Assembly: GCA_040377305.1 (NCBI GenBank)
Contig: JBEIPA010000044.1
Location: 1 to 27,357, forward strand
Source of the DNA: Flavobacteriales bacterium
Lineage (GTDB): Bacteria > Bacteroidota > Bacteroidia > Palsa-965
Reading direction: 5' to 3'
Length of the DNA stretch: 27,357 nucleotides
The notes under the pieces were generated by a model that searched no databases, had not been told where the DNA came from, and saw only the letters and a program-made list of their open reading frames with translations. Positions within the stretch are counted from its first letter, which is position 1. Every line of letters begins with the position of its first letter. The position numbers were made by a program, and so were the translations under genes. Below, one piece after another: positions 5,810 to 27,357 of this stretch.

Positions 5810-8380
5810 ATGAAAAGAGTTTTCACCCTGCTAGCCGGTCTGCTTTCGTTTACCGGAATAATGCAAGCGCAAAACATGCTCGGTTTCCAGAATACCAACT
5901 ACGCTGGTGTTTACGGAATTGACTGGAACCCGTCTTCTATTGTTGACAGTCGCTTCAAGATGGACGTTAACCTGATCGCATTCGATATTGGTTTCACGAA
6001 CAGCTATGTGGGCATGAAGCATAGCGCATTCGCTGGCATGTCTGCATACGGTGCATGGCGCGCCGATGCAAAAGACTCCAATTCAACAGCATTCGACGCG
6101 TTTAACGACGATCAGTTTCAAAGCGTACACATGCAGAAATCTACTGGTGTAGATAATCACTCTGTATTTGTTGGGATGCGCACCGTTCTTCCACTTTCAT
6201 TTATGTGGACGCACGATGATAAGAACGCATTTTCAATGACCGGCGAATTCCGCATGATCACAAACATTGACGGAATTAGTCAGCCGCTCGCTGATTTCCT
6301 TTACGATGACTTCGGTGATTCAACCATGTGGGATCAGAGTTTCTCGAATGCCAATGCAAGTATCCAAATGATGACGTGGCACGAAATCGGGTTCGGTTAT
6401 GCGCGCGTTTTACAAGACGATGGAAGCAACTTCTGGAAGATTGGTGTACGTCCTAAACTTGAACTCGGTTTGGGTTCAATGTATTTCTATGCTGAAGAAC
6501 TCACCTACGAAACAGAGAACAAAGATTCAATTACGATCTATGGTTCGAATGTTCAGTACGGTCACAGCACAAACTTCGACTTCCCGAACGGACAAGGCGA
6601 TCAGGGCGCACTTCGTTATAACTATTCAGAAGCGTTTGCACATCCCGGACTTGGTCTCGACGTAGGTGTTACTTACGAATGGCGTCCGAAGTATCAGGAT
6701 TTCAAATATGATATGGATGGAGAAACGAATCTGTGGATGAAGTCTAAAAACAAATATGAGCTTCGTGCGGCATTCTCAGTTACCGACATTGGTTGGATTA
6801 AGTTCAGTCGTGCAGCAGGTAGCGGTGACTTCAGCGGAGGAATCCAGGACTGGAACTTCCGTGATATTGAATTACAGGATGCAGACTCAAGTACAGTAGA
6901 TTATCCGATTCAGGCGCTTGATGATACGCTACGTAAGTTGTTTGTGTTCCGCGATACAAAAGAAGTATATCGCGTGAATCTTCCAACTGCATTCCGTGCT
7001 GATATTGATTATCACATCTGGAATGATTTCTACATCAACCTTCAGGCGGTGGGTGCAGTACAGTGGAAGAAGAATGCAAACAAAGTACACGACATGTCTT
7101 ACATCGCAGTAACTCCACGTTACGATTACAAGTGGGCTGGTGTGATGGTGCCAATGTCATACAATCAGTACAAACGATTTCAGGTGGGAACAGCAGTTCG
7201 CCTCGGACCAATTTTCGTTGGTACTTCAGACATGGGTGCAATGTTCGGCAAGAAGAAAGATATTACCGGCATGAACTTCTACTTCGGTGTGAAAGTTCCA
7301 TTGCACTTCAAAGAACCAAAAGATCGTGATAAGGATAAAGTGTCCGATAAGAAAGATAAGTGTATCGACACTCCGGGAGTTTGGGAATTCCTCGGTTGTC
7401 CTGACCGCGATGGTGACCATATCCAGGATTCTGAAGACTTGTGTCCGGATGAGCCAGGTGTGAAACAACACAATGGTTGTCCTGATCGTGATGGTGATAA
7501 TATCATTGACAAACAAGATGCGTGTCCGGATGATCCAGGCTTGCAGGAGTTCAATGGTTGTCCTGATAAAGACGGAGACAAAGTGATCGATAAAGAAGAT
7601 GACTGTCCGGATGAGCCAGGTGTGAAAGACTTCAAAGGTTGTCCGGATAAAGACGGCGACGGTGTAATGGATAAACTTGATATCTGTCCTGAGAAACCAG
7701 GTCCGGTTGAGAACGAAGGTTGTCCTGAAGTTATTCTGAGCCTTGTTGATCTTGCTGGTCAATCACTCAAGCAAACGAAGCAAGCGAAAGACGGAAGCTT
7801 CACGTACGAGTCGTTGCCTGCAGATTCAGTTTGCGTGTTCCGCCTCGATGGAGATCCTGACAAAACAATTGGCGTGAATGAAGTGAAAATTATCGTGAAC
7901 GGATTGCCTAAGCGTGCATTGCGCAGCCAGTCTGACGGATTATTCCGCTTCGATATTCCTAAACCAGTTGGAAACGGATTGATTAAACAGCCGGAAGTCG
8001 CACCTGTACTTACGAAGCAGGAAGCAGAAATCCTGAAGCGCGCATTCGACAACCTTGAGTTCGAATCAGGAAAAGCAATCATCAAGCAGGTGTCTTACGC
8101 ATCACTTGATACGCTTGCTGACCTGATGAAGAAGAAGCCTGAGTGGAACCTGAAGATCTCTGGTCACACAGATAACGTTGGTAAGCCGGCTTCGAACATG
8201 AAGCTCTCTGAGAATCGTGCGAAAGCGGTGAAAGCTTACCTCGTATCAAAAGGCATCGATGAAAAACGCCTCATCACGGAATGGTTTGGTCAGACTCGTC
8301 CGATCCAGCCGAACTCAACGCCGGAAGGACGTCAGAAAAACCGCCGCGTAGAAATGATGATTCTCGAAAAAGCGAAGTAG
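5810..8380 (+). CDS. outer-membrane protein: DUF5723-like barrel, thrombospondin type-3 repeats and OmpA-like peptidoglycan-binding domain
   Basis: Signal peptide and beta-strand-rich N-terminal region. Repeated GCPDxDGDxVxDxxDxCP units at about 7320-7725. C-terminal ISGHTDNVG, NMKLSENRAKAV and GRQKNRRVE OmpA motifs. Confidence 0.92.
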   Translation: MKRVFTLLAGLLSFTGIMQAQNMLGFQNTNYAGVYGIDWNPSSIVDSRFKMDVNLIAFDIGFTNSYVGMKHSAFAGMSAYGAWRADAKDSNSTAFDAFNDDQFQSVHMQKSTGVDNHSVFVGMRTVLPLSFMWTHDDKNAFSMTGEFRMITNIDGISQPLADFLYDDFGDSTMWDQSFSNANASIQMMTWHEIGFGYARVLQDDGSNFWKIGVRPKLELGLGSMYFYAEELTYETENKDSITIYGSNVQYGHSTNFDFPNGQGDQGALRYNYSEAFAHPGLGLDVGVTYEWRPKYQDFKYDMDGETNLWMKSKNKYELRAAFSVTDIGWIKFSRAAGSGDFSGGIQDWNFRDIELQDADSSTVDYPIQALDDTLRKLFVFRDTKEVYRVNLPTAFRADIDYHIWNDFYINLQAVGAVQWKKNANKVHDMSYIAVTPRYDYKWAGVMVPMSYNQYKRFQVGTAVRLGPIFVGTSDMGAMFGKKKDITGMNFYFGVKVPLHFKEPKDRDKDKVSDKKDKCIDTPGVWEFLGCPDRDGDHIQDSEDLCPDEPGVKQHNGCPDRDGDNIIDKQDACPDDPGLQEFNGCPDKDGDKVIDKEDDCPDEPGVKDFKGCPDKDGDGVMDKLDICPEKPGPVENEGCPEVILSLVDLAGQSLKQTKQAKDGSFTYESLPADSVCVFRLDGDPDKTIGVNEVKIIVNGLPKRALRSQSDGLFRFDIPKPVGNGLIKQPEVAPVLTKQEAEILKRAFDNLEFESGKAIIKQVSYASLDTLADLMKKKPEWNLKISGHTDNVGKPASNMKLSENRAKAVKAYLVSKGIDEKRLITEWFGQTRPIQPNSTPEGRQKNRRVEMMILEKAK

Positions 8381-8449: not shown

Positions 8450-8540
8450 TTGTGCGTTGAACATTGAACTTTGACACTTTACGCCTATGACCCGATGAAA
8501 GTAAAGTGTCAATGAACAACGCTCAAGTGGCAAGTAACAA
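8450..8540. repeat. heptamer-periodic imperfect inverted repeat
   Basis: Left arm TTGTGCG-TTGAACA-TTGAACT-TTGACAC. Right arm GTGTCAA-TGAACAA-CGCTCAA-GTGGCAA-GTAACAA. Perfect 12-bp core TTGACACTTTAC (8471-8482) / GTAAAGTGTCAA (8501-8512). Confidence 0.75.
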
Positions 8541-9134: not shown

Positions 9135-9443
9135 TTCCGTGGGCGAAAGCCGTAATTCCTAAAGTTCCAGTCGATGTTATGTTCCGTGGGCTAAAGTCGA
9201 AGCTCCCGAAGCTCCAGTCCATATTATCTTCCGTGGGCTAAAGCTAAATTTCCCCGAAGCTCCAGTCCATATTATCTTCTGTGGGCTAAAGCTAAATTCC
9301 CCCGAAGCTCCAGTCCATATTATCTTCCGTGGGCTAAAGCTAAATTTCCTAAAGTCCCAGTCGATGTTATGTTCCGTGGGCTAAAGCTAAATTTCCCCGA
9401 AGCTCCAGTCCATATTATCTTCCGTGGGCTAAAGCCGCACGGA
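9135..9443. repeat. tandem array of six 47/48-bp units plus a terminal REP-like hairpin
   Basis: Units start at 9135, 9182, 9229, 9277, 9325 and 9372, with a partial unit at 9420. Each begins TTCCGTGGGCTAAAG or a 1-nt variant. The last reads TCCGTG-GGC-TAAA-GCC-G-CACGGA. Lies between convergent genes. Confidence 0.95.
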
Positions 9444-13696: not shown

Positions 13697-13715
13697 TGGA
13701 GAAAGGTAAGGAAAA

Positions 13716-13813
13716 AGTGGCAGCGGCAGTCGCAGTGGCAATCAGTAAACAGTATTCCGTTTTTAACCAATCCTGACTGAAAACTGACTGCAACTGCGAC
13801 TGCAACTGTGACT
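13716..13813. repeat. hexamer-periodic imperfect inverted repeat
   Basis: 38-nt arms at 13716-13753 and 13776-13813 match at 29 of 38 positions as reverse complements. They are built of (g)CAGTnn / ACTGnn units and lie between divergent genes. Confidence 0.8.
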
Positions 13814-13832
13814 TCCCGTAACGTCGATTTGC

Positions 13833-23510: not shown

Positions 23511-23736
23511 TACCGGCAAGGCGTATTTTTGACCACAAAGCGCACGAAGGCACAAAGTTTTACTTCGTGCTATTTCTTTGTGTCTTGGTGTACTTAGTGG
23601 TAAAACCTAAGAGCGTAACGTTGTTCCCACTGATGAAATAGCTGATCCGTCAAGCCAATCTTATTGACCACAAAGCACACAAAGGCACAAAGTTTTGCTG
23701 TGTACGATTTCTTGGCGTTTTGGCGTCTTGGCGGTA
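23511..23736. repeat. two 8/9-mer-periodic palindromic elements between convergent genes
   Basis: Hairpin A: ACCACAAAGCGCACGAAGGCACAAAG (23532-23557) / CTTTGTGTCTTGGTGTACTTAGTGGT (23576-23601). A second left arm starts at 23667. Outer arms TACCGGCAAGGCG (23511-23523) / CGTCTTGGCGGTA (23724-23736) match at 11 of 13. Confidence 0.85.
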
Positions 23737-23742
23737 GACTTT

Positions 23743-26214
23743 CTAAGAGCGTAGCGTCGCACCCACCTGCTCTTCAAACGCCTTCTGCAACTTCTCCATC
23801 GTCTTATCAATCTGCTTATCGGTCAACGTAGCTTCGTTGTCTTGCAGAACAAAACTCAACGCGTATTGCTTCTTGTCGCCACCAAGCTTATCGCCTTCGT
23901 AAACGTCAAACAAATTCAGTTCGCGCAATAGCTTGCGCTCTGTATTCCATGCAATTTCTTCGAGCTGCTGATACGTAACGCCTTTCGCAATTACAAGTGC
24001 AAGATCTCTACGCACCGAAGGAAATTTTCCAACTTCCTCAAAACGTGTCGGCTTTACTTTTCCTAAGAGACGCATGATCGTACTCCACTCAAATTCTGCT
24101 GCAAGAACAATTCCTTGTGTGTCTGTTTGCTTGAGTGTGCTTTTCGAAATAACGCCCATGCGCACAACTTCACGCTTGCCTTGCATAGCAACAAGTCCTT
24201 CGCTGTAGAGCGGATTCGAAATGGACTGCCACTTCAAACCGTCCAGTTTTAGTTTGCGTAGAATCACTTCTACTTCGCGACGAATATCAGCGAAAGAAAC
24301 TTTCTCCGCTTTGCCCGCCCACGTTTCCGGCTGCTTGTTGCCGGTGATGAGCATCAGCAGGTGTTCGTTTTCTTCCCAATTCCATCCTTCGAAATTGGGT
24401 TCAGAAAGAGTGCTGTACACTTTGCCAAACTCGAATACGCGCAGGTCTGTCGATTTACGATTCTGATTATAAGTCAATGTCTCCAATCCACCGAACAACA
24501 AAGTCTGACGCATCACACCTAAATCAGAGCTCAGCGGATTCAAAACTTTCACTGCGCGTTGTGCTTCTTCGCCCTGAAGCTGCTCGGAGTACGAAGTCTT
24601 CGTAAGCGAATTATTCATGAGCTCACGAAAACCGCGCGACGATAAATTATTCGAAATCGTTTCGCGCACATTCTCCGGATCAGGATTCTTCATCTTCGAA
24701 GCGGAAATCTGCAGCTTCTCCGGGAAGCCAATATTGTTGTAGCCGTACACGCGGAGAATTTCTTCTACCACATCGGCCGGACGCGTAACATCCACTTTGA
24801 AATGCGGAATGGACAACAACAAGGCATCTGCCCCGTCTGAAAGAATCTGAATACCAAGTGCAGTGAGAATCTTGCGAATAATATTGTGTTCAATTCTCTT
24901 TCCGATAAGTTTATCGCACTGATCGAACGAGAAAGAAATTTCAAGCGGTTCTGTTTTTCCGGGATAAACATCGCTCACTTGCGAAGCTGCTTTACCGGAA
25001 GACGTATACTCCATGAGATACACCGCACGCAACAACGCAGTGACTGTAATCTCCGGATCTGATCCGCGTTCGAAACGGAAAGAAGAATCTGTTTTAAGCT
25101 GATGATGTTTCGAGGTTTTACGCACGTGTACAGAATCAAACGCAGCGCTCTCGAGGAATACACGCTTTGTACTTTCGTTCACACCGGAATCTAATCCTCC
25201 GAAAACGCCCGCTATACACATCGCTTTGTTCTCATCGCATATCATGAGATCAGTCGAAGTTAAGTCACGAGTCGCGCCATCCAGGGTAGTAAATTTCGTT
25301 CCCAAAGAAACCTTTTTCACTTTCACTTTTCCACCGCCGATTTTGTCTGCATCAAACGCATGCAAAGGCTGACCGGTTTCGTGCATCACGTAATTTGTAA
25401 TGTCAACGATATTATTGATCGGACGCAATCCGATTGACTTCAAACGATTCTGCAACCACTCCGGCGACGGTCCGACTTTAATTTCATCAATGAGAATTCC
25501 CGAATAACGCTTGCATGCAACGCTGTCTTCAATCTCAATCGCGATCGGACAAGCCGGCAACTCTTCTGACGTAGTTGCAAGCGTAGGATATCTCGCTTCA
25601 GCAGATTCTGCGTGAATATCTTTAATCAGTTTTTGCGCAAGCACAACTGCAGCCAAATCTCTCGCCACACCAAAATGCGATGCTGCATCAGAACGATTCG
25701 GAGTCAATCCGATTTCCAGAATTGCATCGGAACTTACGTTGTAATATGCTGCAGCAGGTGTTCCCACTTTCGCATCAGCAGGCAACACAATAATTCCCGC
25801 ATGCGATTTACCGAGACCAATTTCATCTTCCGCACAAATCATTCCTTCCGAATTCTCGCCGCGAATTTTCGACTTCTTGATTTCGAATGGTTCACCTTCC
25901 GTTGGATATAATTTCGCACCAACTGTTGCCACAACCACTTTTTGTCCGGCTTCCACATTCGGTGCACCACAAACAATACTCAGCAATTCCGCACCACCCA
26001 CATCAACTTTCGTGAGCGACAATTTATCTGCATTCGGGTGCTTCGAACATTCCTTCACTTCTCCGATCACAACACCACGCAATCCGCCAGGCAAACTTTC
26101 AAAAGGCTCCACGCTTTCTACTTCGAGTCCGCAATCCGTTAGGGCAGCAGAAATTTCCTCTGCCGTGAGGTCGGTTGGATAGTATTCTTTGAGCCAATTG
26201 AGGGATATTTTCAT
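23743..26214 (-). CDS. pheT: phenylalanine--tRNA ligase beta subunit
   Basis: MKISLNWLKEY start (ATG at 26214). Motifs HPNADKL, IVCGAPNV, SEGMIC, LTPNRSD, INNIVDITNY, GQPLHAFD, RFERG, FPSVRRDLA and LFDVYEG. Confidence 0.98.
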   Translation of the reverse strand: MKISLNWLKEYYPTDLTAEEISAALTDCGLEVESVEPFESLPGGLRGVVIGEVKECSKHPNADKLSLTKVDVGGAELLSIVCGAPNVEAGQKVVVATVGAKLYPTEGEPFEIKKSKIRGENSEGMICAEDEIGLGKSHAGIIVLPADAKVGTPAAAYYNVSSDAILEIGLTPNRSDAASHFGVARDLAAVVLAQKLIKDIHAESAEARYPTLATTSEELPACPIAIEIEDSVACKRYSGILIDEIKVGPSPEWLQNRLKSIGLRPINNIVDITNYVMHETGQPLHAFDADKIGGGKVKVKKVSLGTKFTTLDGATRDLTSTDLMICDENKAMCIAGVFGGLDSGVNESTKRVFLESAAFDSVHVRKTSKHHQLKTDSSFRFERGSDPEITVTALLRAVYLMEYTSSGKAASQVSDVYPGKTEPLEISFSFDQCDKLIGKRIEHNIIRKILTALGIQILSDGADALLLSIPHFKVDVTRPADVVEEILRVYGYNNIGFPEKLQISASKMKNPDPENVRETISNNLSSRGFRELMNNSLTKTSYSEQLQGEEAQRAVKVLNPLSSDLGVMRQTLLFGGLETLTYNQNRKSTDLRVFEFGKVYSTLSEPNFEGWNWEENEHLLMLITGNKQPETWAGKAEKVSFADIRREVEVILRKLKLDGLKWQSISNPLYSEGLVAMQGKREVVRMGVISKSTLKQTDTQGIVLAAEFEWSTIMRLLGKVKPTRFEEVGKFPSVRRDLALVIAKGVTYQQLEEIAWNTERKLLRELNLFDVYEGDKLGGDKKQYALSFVLQDNEATLTDKQIDKTMEKLQKAFEEQVGATLRS

Positions 26215-26239: not shown

Positions 26240-26455
26240 ACCACATAGGAACATAGAAACGTCACTAAAAAAGGGTTTCGACAAGTCGAAACATACATAG
26301 TTCACAGGAGTAATATTCCTTACGGAATATTGATTGCTTGGCATGAAGTGGTTACAAAGGGGGGATGATCCTCATCTTCCCTTACTCTTGTGAACTATGT
26401 ATCGCGCTTTTGCGCGCCTTTTTCTAACACCTAACACACTATGATCCTATGTGGT
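26240..26455. repeat. complete copy of a multi-branched structured element with 17-bp terminal inverted repeats
   Basis: P1 26240-26256/26439-26455 (16 of 17). P2 26268-26274/26417-26423. H1 26275-26292. P3 26293-26313/26382-26402 (21 bp, one G-T). H2 26314-26329. H3 26359-26381. H4 26403-26416. Confidence 0.9.
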
Positions 26456-26480: not shown

Positions 26481-26531
26481 GACAAGTCGTTGCGTACATA
26501 GTTCCCAGAAGTGTATTACTGACGGAATATT
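26481..26531. repeat. degenerate left-internal copy (H1-P3-H2 part) of the structured element
   Basis: GACAAGTCG..TACATAGTTC.CAG.AGT..TATT.CT.ACGGAATATT aligns with 26280-26331. Confidence 0.75.
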
Positions 26532-26579: not shown

Positions 26580-26987
26580 ATGACGAAACAGGAACTAGAC
26601 AAACTCAGCTATGATGTTATCGGAGCAGCAATTGAGGTTCATCGTATCCTTGGACCCGGATTACTGGAAGCAATGTATCACAAGTGTATGATGAAGGAGT
26701 TGACTTTGCGAAAACTGAAATTCAAATCAGAACTCAAGGTCGACGTGGAATACAAGGGAGATAAAATCAAAACCGGACTTCGATGCGATCTTCTCGTGGA
26801 AGACATATTGGTGGTTGAACTCAAAGCAGTCAATGAACGGAATCCCCTTTTTGAAGCGCAACTATTGACATACATGAAGCTACTTGGCAAACCCAAAGGC
26901 ATCCTAATCCACTTTAATTGTCACAACATTTTCAAAGACGGTCAAAAAACTTTCGTCAACAAACTCTACGAAAACCTCGCCGCGTGA
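26580..26987 (+). CDS. GxxExxY protein (PD-(D/E)XK nuclease-like)
   Basis: IGAAIEVHRILGPGLLEAMY contains GxxExxY. CDLLVEDILVVELK supplies the D...ExK motif. AQLLTYMKL and GILIHF are also family motifs. Confidence 0.95.
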   Translation: MTKQELDKLSYDVIGAAIEVHRILGPGLLEAMYHKCMMKELTLRKLKFKSELKVDVEYKGDKIKTGLRCDLLVEDILVVELKAVNERNPLFEAQLLTYMKLLGKPKGILIHFNCHNIFKDGQKTFVNKLYENLAA

Positions 26988-26988
26988 A

Positions 26989-27357
26989 ACCACATAGAAT
27001 CATAGAAATCGTGGCTTAAAAAAGGGTTCCGACTTGTCGGAACCCTTTCTCTTGTGAACTATGTATCGCGCTTTCGCGCGCCTTTTTTCTAACACCTAAC
27101 ACACTATGTTCCTATGTGGTTAACAGCGCCATTTTCTAACACCTAACACCCTATGATACTACGTGGTTAAAGTCGAGGTAACAAATGGGAGATGTTTCAC
27201 ATCTCCCGTTTCTCTTGTGACCTATGTATCGCGCTTTTGCGCGCCTTTTTCTAACACCCAACACCCTATGTTCCTATGTGTTTAACAGCGCCTTTTTTCT
27301 AACACCTAACACCCTATGATATTACGTGGTTAAAGTCGAGGTAACAAATGGGAGATG
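26989..27357. repeat. downstream copies of the structured element, including a 163-bp tandem repeat truncated by the window end
   Basis: A copy at 26989-27120 starts right after the stop codon. TTTCTCTTGTGA recurs at 27046 and 27209, and GGGAGATG at 27187 and 27350, giving a period of 163. Confidence 0.92.

Follow-up and report, generated by a model that had tools for sequence, protein, structure and literature searches.

A perfect four-way fold beside a GxxExxY gene lies within a dispersed repeat family whose ends accompany the gene clade

Introduction

The GxxExxY proteins (PF13366) form a very large family whose function is listed as unknown (PMC3424549). The window analysed here, 27,357 nt of contig JBEIPA010000044.1 from a Flavobacteriales bacterium (assembly GCA_040377305.1), carries one such gene beside a short stretch that, in an initial annotation made from the letters alone, appeared to fold into a perfect four-way junction resembling a Holliday junction. 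That annotation supposed that the single-stranded element might present a junction substrate to the adjacent protein, or might be a scaffold RNA. The locus therefore raises the question of whether the junction is what the element is for, or whether it is a consequence of how the element is built. We address this question by examining the fold itself, the repeat family to which it belongs, the link of that family to GxxExxY genes, and the recurrence of the junction in other copies, other genomes and unrelated repeats.

Results

The four-way fold and its locus

Folding with DNA and with RNA parameters gave the same four-way junction as the minimum-energy structure of both strands, with zero unpaired bases at the junction. 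The four helices abut as first described: P2 (26268-26274/26417-26423) has 7 Watson-Crick pairs, H1 (26275-26292) offers 8 pairs around AA and folds as 7 pairs with a 4-nt loop, P3 (26293-26313/26382-26402) has 20 Watson-Crick pairs and one G-T pair, and H4 (26403-26416) has 5 pairs. The fold z-scores of the four strand and parameter runs were -11.66, -11.20, -10.12 and -10.65, with 0 of 200 shuffles as good in each, and a perfect four-way junction with every arm at least 4 bp long had a probability of 0.71, 0.73, 0.77 and 0.84 in sampled ensembles. The four-way fold is real.

Hairpins H2 (26314-26329) and H3 (26359-26381), at the far end of P3, are also genuine: compensatory changes in the copy that a relative has at this locus preserve the pairing of both. 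A second junction had been proposed between them and P3, and this is poorly supported: its probability was 0.91 for the plus strand as RNA, 0.05 for the minus strand as RNA, and 0.04 and 0.01 as DNA, and its middle stretch holds 15 of the 25 substitutions listed for the relative. The extent of the element also had to be revised. The interior fold stands, but the coordinates first given omitted inverted outer ends at 26240-26256 and 26439-26455; the four-way fold is the interior of a longer stem closed by these ends, each of two CATAG units. The features of the locus are as follows.

23743-26214, minus strand: pheT, divergent neighbour
26240-26455, no strand: complete CATAG-family element, gene-less, 216 bp; one among the genome's 40 paired copies
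26240-26256, plus strand: left terminal inverted repeat, two CATAG units
26268-26274, plus strand: left strand of P2; on the minus strand, the T-tract after H1, terminator-like
26275-26292, no strand: H1, left-arm palindrome, ending 3 nt before the inner CATAG
26293-26313, plus strand: left strand of P3, an inner degenerate copy of the CATAG repeat units
26314-26329, no strand: H2; a compensatory change keeps the hairpin in the relative's copy
26330-26358, no strand: variable middle stretch; the weak stem first seen here is not conserved
26359-26381, no strand: H3; in the relative, one compensatory change and two G-T to Watson-Crick changes, innermost pair broken
26382-26402, plus strand: right strand of P3
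26403-26416, no strand: H4, right-arm palindrome, sequence unlike H1
26417-26423, plus strand: right strand of P2; T-tract after H4, terminator-like on the plus strand
26439-26455, plus strand: right terminal inverted repeat
26481-26531, plus strand: decayed copy of the left interior (end of H1, left strand of P3, H2), upstream of the GxxExxY gene
26580-26987, plus strand: GxxExxY gene, 135 aa (TIGR04256, PF13366 PDDEXK_3), with E30, D70, E80, K82, Q94 and Y98
26989-27120, no strand: second element, internally deleted, directly after the GxxExxY stop codon, with a terminator-like hairpin at 27067-27080
27121-27357, plus strand: tandem right-arm array, 163-nt unit, running off the contig, copy number uncertain

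The window element thus stands in a divergent gap, between pheT on the minus strand and the GxxExxY gene on the plus strand. As the second element and the right-arm array lie 3' of the gene, the outermost ends enclose it. A TAnnTTTG-like box, a Bacteroidota promoter motif, stands just outside each end of the whole insert, the one on the pheT side at 26228-26221. The right-arm array and the end of contig C11 share a 63-nt overlap with a single mismatch; on C11 a TMEM260-like gene comes next. In run X1 a contig joins 26258 to 27104, and we set it aside as it may derive from another organism. We also rejected H1 and H4 as a target-site duplication of one palindrome, because their loops are mirror-symmetric and not direct repeats.

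The window contains other repeats. Two palindromic elements with CACAAAG-type arms lie directly beyond the pheT stop codon (23526-23766); these arms resemble those of the GxxExxY paralogue at C10:11482 and have about 68 matches in the genome. An intergenic tandem array of about six 47-48 nt units with a conserved core occupies 9135-9435, two imperfect inverted repeats of 6-7 nt units flank short spacers at 13715-13814 and 8457-8526, and three 81-nt coding repeats (27 aa) lie at 7394-7636 within an 856-aa ORF (5810-8380).

A dispersed family with a conserved arm

The ends of the element are inverted copies of CACATAG-nnn-CATAG. This motif occurs 106 times in the 5.18-Mb genome, compared with 22 in a Markov simulation, and its pairing yielded 42 elements, or 40 once one false pairing and one truncated copy were removed. 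The window element is therefore one member of a family. Its copies, as cut out, span 87-250 nt; they have the inner stem P3 in common, which is itself a degenerate pair of CATAG-type units, and their interiors vary. The conserved unit is the arm, consisting of a spacer, a GC-rich palindrome of varying sequence, 2-3 nt and the inner CATAG. The register of the hairpin is fixed: 2-3 nt separate its end from the inner CATAG in 30 of the 37 hairpin arms of this genome and in 34 of 35 in the relative G015. The four bases read outward before the hairpin vary (GTAT, GTAG, GTAA, GACG or GTCG; the REP tag is GTAG or CGTC).

Elements are placed in gaps, often immediately after stop codons. None of the 41 examined lay inside a long ORF, and 21 of 80 element ends began one base past the stop of a reading frame 90 or more codons long. 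By a crude ORF caller, neighbours were convergent for 18 elements, tandem for 15 and divergent for 5, with 3 elements at contig ends; convergent gaps accordingly held 18 of the 38 elements with two neighbours, compared with 193 of 1406 long gaps. No viral contig with the CATAG arm pattern was found.

Arm type follows the GxxExxY clade

We assembled 147 non-redundant homologous loci (160 fetched, less 9 duplicates and 4 short ones). A left arm lay upstream of the GxxExxY gene at 118 of these and a right arm downstream at 114, with both present at 101, and an inverted-repeat score of at least 14 was reached at 102 loci and in none of 118 control windows. Arm type required 9 changes on a quickly built tree of 108 proteins against a mean of 40.6 with shuffled labels, a difference that near-copies inflate. 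CATAG arms were found at none of the 23 loci below 50% protein identity; protein homologues 81-95% identical exist, and the loci with DNA context reach 68% identity at most. Among 35 genomes of the family, at least 20 exact arms were present in 4 of the 7 with the clade gene versus 0 of the 28 in which the gene was not found, where kin are not independent and the tallies, like one row of the tree, include G012, a genome that is not the sole basis of any claim. There were exceptions in both directions: G010 has 14 arms and the clade gene was not found there, and G001 has the gene and no exact arm. This genome has eight PF13366 genes, and its other GxxExxY paralogues carry other arm families, each with its own dispersed copies. 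The ends of the element are thus linked to one clade of the gene. A literature search, paywalled papers and supplements aside, found no description of repeats around GxxExxY genes.

Presence of the element is patchy among relatives. The pheT spacer of G014, G010 and G007 is short and empty, that of G015 contains a nested CACATAG array but no GxxExxY gene, and that of G013 has a different palindrome. At four other element sites, CATAG arms occurred in 0 of 12 relatives' loci, several of which hold palindromes of other arm families. The flanking genes of these relatives are 68-86% identical, too distant to define the empty-site joints by which a target-site duplication would be recognised.

Two further sites illustrate the history of such repeats. 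At C36:9236-9376 of this genome, G000 (L293; L305-L308; also L314 and L317), G000, G015, G013 and G007 each have a different arm family and G010 has none, and several of these families resemble arms of other GxxExxY paralogues; the turnover suggests repeated replacement at hot spots after stop codons. In the pheT spacer of G015 (L082) and the downstream flank of L267, elements are several layers deep and the inner arms are full terminal-repeat copies, a nesting that suggests growth by insertion into existing copies.

We consider it reasonably probable that the element is a REPIN-like, non-autonomous derivative of a GxxExxY cassette, spread in trans by the cognate nuclease, with the perfect junction a likely by-product. 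Four other explanations, which partly overlap with this one, are weighed below.

Most copies lack the junction and unrelated repeats form it

Only 1 of the 40 copies in this genome forms a perfect junction with a probability of at least 0.5 (42 elements were folded), a count that fits shuffling of arms (0.64 expected, P 0.50). Around GxxExxY genes, in a scan that used DNA parameters only, shorter flanks and no joined regions, the junction was absent at 143 of 145 loci, and the two that had it did so with 4-bp arms. None of 10 elements in the relatives G013 and G007 formed it. Nor did a search of 400 other genomes of the class (drawn without G015) turn up the nested architecture, although the gene clade spans several phyla.

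G015 departs from this pattern. Among 20 elements recovered from fetched loci, which are not its full set, 3 form a perfect junction at 0.5 or above as DNA, and 4 form a junction when up to two unpaired bases are allowed; as RNA, the count is 2. Their hairpins differ from those of the window: two junction elements have the window's flanks around other hairpins, others have wholly different flanks, and one of the three perfect junctions differs in its junction-flanking bases too. Of the 20, 8 had arm pairs in register where shuffling gave 4.3 (P 0.01), and none had arms with the same stem where it gave 2.9 (P 0.04). The excess of in-register pairs is what selection for the junction would produce; it is equally explained if a few founders were copied, and such copying could underlie both departures. 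Junction continuity is therefore lost in most homologous copies and kept in a few.

The relative's copy at the window's own locus (run X4, a single low-depth contig) has 25 listed substitutions, all within 26315-26384; there are 0 in the 39 junction-proximal nt versus 25 in 70 nt distally. It also has a one-base deletion at 26402, at the junction itself, and 4 further differences that the alignment left unplaced. Conservation near the junction could reflect conversion among copies or selection on the junction.

A strict scan of the whole genome identified 10 perfect four-way junction sites, including that of the window, while each of two block-shuffled genomes yielded 0. The nine others (C15:163921, C15:166206, C17:28966, C18:53059, C19:113683, C21:32663, C24:77241, C28:36032 and C54:1567) lie outside the CATAG family and consist of inverted arms with slightly different palindromes in unrelated sequences; five match Y1/RAYT flanks and none matches GxxExxY flanks. 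Perfect junctions are generic in the repeats of this genome. The geometry accounts for them: when inverted arms in register carry different palindromes, the flanks pair across and each palindrome folds alone, so that a four-way junction results, one that would be locally equivalent to a cruciform extruded at one arm. REP heterodimers are known, with protection from palindrome clearance as the suggested reason (PMC3733652), and a clover fold has been proposed as the form of a REPIN that a RAYT dimer recognises (PMC3116915).

The GxxExxY protein and the junction as substrate

The only profiles matched by the protein are TIGR04256 and PF13366; its homologue search gave 7986 matches among 7998 candidates scored, and a PDB sequence search with its alignment gave none. 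E30, D70 and E80 are invariant and K82 is at least 90% conserved in 83 sequences, and Q94 and Y98 of a QxxxY motif, described as RecB-type (PMC2475608), are at least 90% conserved. With the predicted structure (pLDDT 96.6), Foldseek placed Cas4 SSO0001 first (E 4e-4, TM 0.52) and Hjc at ranks 10 and 15 (E 0.02-0.04, TM 0.38-0.39), whereas VIA gave uniformly middling Z scores of 8.1 for CinB, 7.5 for Cas4 (rmsd 4.6, 101 aligned) and 6.5 for Hjc (rmsd 3.5, 87 aligned). The three cysteines, C36, C69 and C114, do not make up a four-cysteine Fe-S set. A GxxExxY domain has been noted where another tool called cas4 (10.1101/2021.01.26.428298). From the model and the conserved residues, the protein is likely an active enzyme with a generic PD-(D/E)XK core and a RecB-type motif. 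One Cas4 cleaves 2-3 nt from branch points (10.1101/2024.11.29.625776), so the Cas4-like ranking is compatible with branch cutting.

These data bear on the proposal that the junction, or a one-arm cruciform, is the working substrate, with a branch-specific GxxExxY protein cutting at the foot of the hairpin and junction-forming copies being the active ones. Several observations agree with it: the G015 junctions with their different hairpins and in-register excess, the fixed 2-3 nt register, conservation near the junction in the relative's copy, the position of the junction-bearing copy next to a GxxExxY gene, intact catalytic residues, Hjc within about 1 Z of Cas4, the Cas4 cleavage distance, and the clover as a proposed recognised form. 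Against these stand the scarcity of the junction in this genome, in G013 and G007 and at gene flanks, the failure to find the nested architecture in the 400 other genomes of the class for so widespread a gene clade, the base missing from the relative's copy at the junction, the Foldseek order of Cas4 above Hjc, and the RecB-type motif. We regard a working junction as unlikely. That it is a required substrate finds no support: 39 of the 40 copies here and the flanks of 143 of 145 homologous genes are without it, and unrelated repeats of this genome form it. The suggested tie to the adjacent protein survives in another form: the ends belong to a repeat family that brackets the gene clade, the junction recurs in G015, and the catalytic residues are kept.

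Another mobilising enzyme

The elements might instead be moved by a different enzyme, a Y1/RAYT or IS transposase, with the GxxExxY gene as a passenger. The genome has ten Y1 genes, and the architecture is REPIN-like. However, CATAG arms occur in the printed flanks of 0 of the 10 Y1 loci, with a single loose, two-mismatch arm match within 700 nt of one; arm type tracks the phylogeny of GxxExxY; and the GxxExxY paralogues here have their own arm families. We find a passenger role for the gene rather improbable.

An upstream motif containing AAACGTTTGT is common to several Y1 and GxxExxY genes of G000 (C10:136654, C10:11170, C38:2472 and C43:12128 among them). Standing before unrelated small genes, it is possibly a common promoter or operator.

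Terminator and RNA readings

H4 with its T-tract on the plus strand and H1 with its T-tract on the minus strand score as terminator-like. Each hairpin precedes a T-tract on its outward strand, so P2 can also be read as two terminator-like tracts. The structure could accordingly be kept as a bidirectional terminator or insulator, with an outward GC-rich hairpin and T-tract in each arm and P2 pairing only on paper. The preference for convergent gaps and the ends one base after long-frame stop codons agree with such a use, as does the plain bidirectional terminator that G014 has at one orthologous site; the convergent-gap enrichment points to a role at transcript ends, against the cassette-derivative explanation. 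Yet a T-rich tract follows the hairpin in only 9 of 37 arms here and 7 of 35 in G015, the window copy sits between divergent genes, and the CATAG ends and their link to the gene clade are left unexplained. Termination as the reason for the structure seems to us very unlikely, and it can hold beside the cassette-derivative explanation as a secondary use.

With respect to RNA, no Rfam family reached its gathering score in the window; the best sub-threshold match, located on the second element, was the rimP leader (35.9 of 47 bits). Among B-type arms, 15 of 16 have GNA loops, with a varying middle base, and GCGNAGC, which as DNA forms an unusually stable mini-hairpin and as RNA a far weaker one (PMC13037366), occurs on the outward strand 18 times versus 1; since B-type arms share ancestry, these counts are only a hint of a role as DNA. 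The G015 elements point the same way, with junctions reaching 0.5 in 4 of 20 as DNA and in 2 of 20 as RNA. We judge it most improbable that transcription of the element yields a structured RNA acting as scaffold or regulator for the GxxExxY protein: the strong RNA fold (z -11.66), the stabler plus strand (-75.5 versus -61.7 kcal/mol) and the compensatory changes in H2 and H3 would agree with it, but no known family reaches the Rfam cut-off, the fold is nearly strand-symmetric, the interior differs among copies, the family has loops of the DNA mini-hairpin type, and on the left of the element no TAnnTTTG-like box is directed into it.

Discussion

We return to the element as a REPIN-like cassette derivative. 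A gene-less copy of the cassette has two inverted arms with GC-rich palindromes at the same place and of different sequence, and once single-stranded, such a copy would pair its flanks from arm to arm and leave each palindrome to fold by itself. The GxxExxY protein likely binds CATAG units, because arm type follows protein clade, and it may nick or process single-stranded DNA at these units and so copy the element. Copies would land in gaps after stop codons, and unlike hairpins would persist since they break up what would otherwise be a long perfect palindrome. Arms like those of the window copy may also serve as terminators that face outward. Neither excision nor target duplication nor activity was seen.

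A bolder version, which we hold to be doubtful, is that GxxExxY proteins, as minimal PD-(D/E)XK nucleases, mobilise a hitherto undescribed kind of selfish DNA: they would recognise their own CATAG repeats and cut at the foot of a hairpin, cruciform or junction in the arms, with junction-forming copies active. If true, a REPIN-like system would be run by a branch-cutting nuclease and not by an HUH transposase. The locus supplies candidate substrates for PF13366/GxxExxY proteins, namely CATAG arms, a hairpin in 2-3 nt register and, in some copies, a four-way junction. Should the protein move the elements, bacteria would have a further route to REPIN-like repeats that requires no known transposase. 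Should it not, perfect four-way folds would be a generic outcome of inverted arms with unlike palindromes, and would not by themselves be evidence of a resolvase substrate or a scaffold RNA.

Comparison with known systems

Hjc and T7 endonuclease I, which were first invoked for this locus, are homodimers with two active sites that make paired, symmetric cuts in a four-way junction. The GxxExxY protein resembles them in its small stand-alone PD-(D/E)XK fold and intact catalytic residues, and Hjc appeared in both fold searches, below Cas4 in each and by about 1 Z in one; unlike them, the protein has QxxxY. Among the Cas4/RecB nucleases (SSO0001, Pcal_0546) lies its top Foldseek match, with D70, ExK and QxxxY motifs in common; Cas4, however, has four Fe-S cysteines and about 200 aa against three cysteines and 135 aa, and the neighbours of the GxxExxY gene are pheT and a TMEM260-like gene.

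Like bacterial MITEs, the element is short, non-coding, bounded by terminal inverted repeats and patchy among relatives, whereas a cognate transposase and target duplication were not found here, with the relatives' flanking genes 68-86% identical. Like a TIRtron (PMC3733652), the locus has a small gene bracketed by terminal inverted repeats that also form a dispersed family; the TIRtron carries a tyrosine transposase, whereas the cassette here carries GxxExxY (TIGR04256/PF13366). With REPINs, the REP dimers of RAYTs (PMC3116915, PMC3733652), it has in common inverted short palindromes, a structured spacer, extragenic placement, tens of copies, unlike palindromes in the two arms and a published alternative clover fold. 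It differs from them in that the linked gene encodes a PD-(D/E)XK protein and not an HUH tyrosine transposase, that its outer ends consist of CATAG units of 8-9 nt in tandem with the palindromes inside them, and that the clover is the predicted ground state in the window copy. The element works like a REPIN or a TIRtron but is without their tyrosine transposase. Three findings are new here: the register of the hairpin is fixed, the junction reappears in a relative built from different sequences, and the repeats of this genome form such junctions generically.
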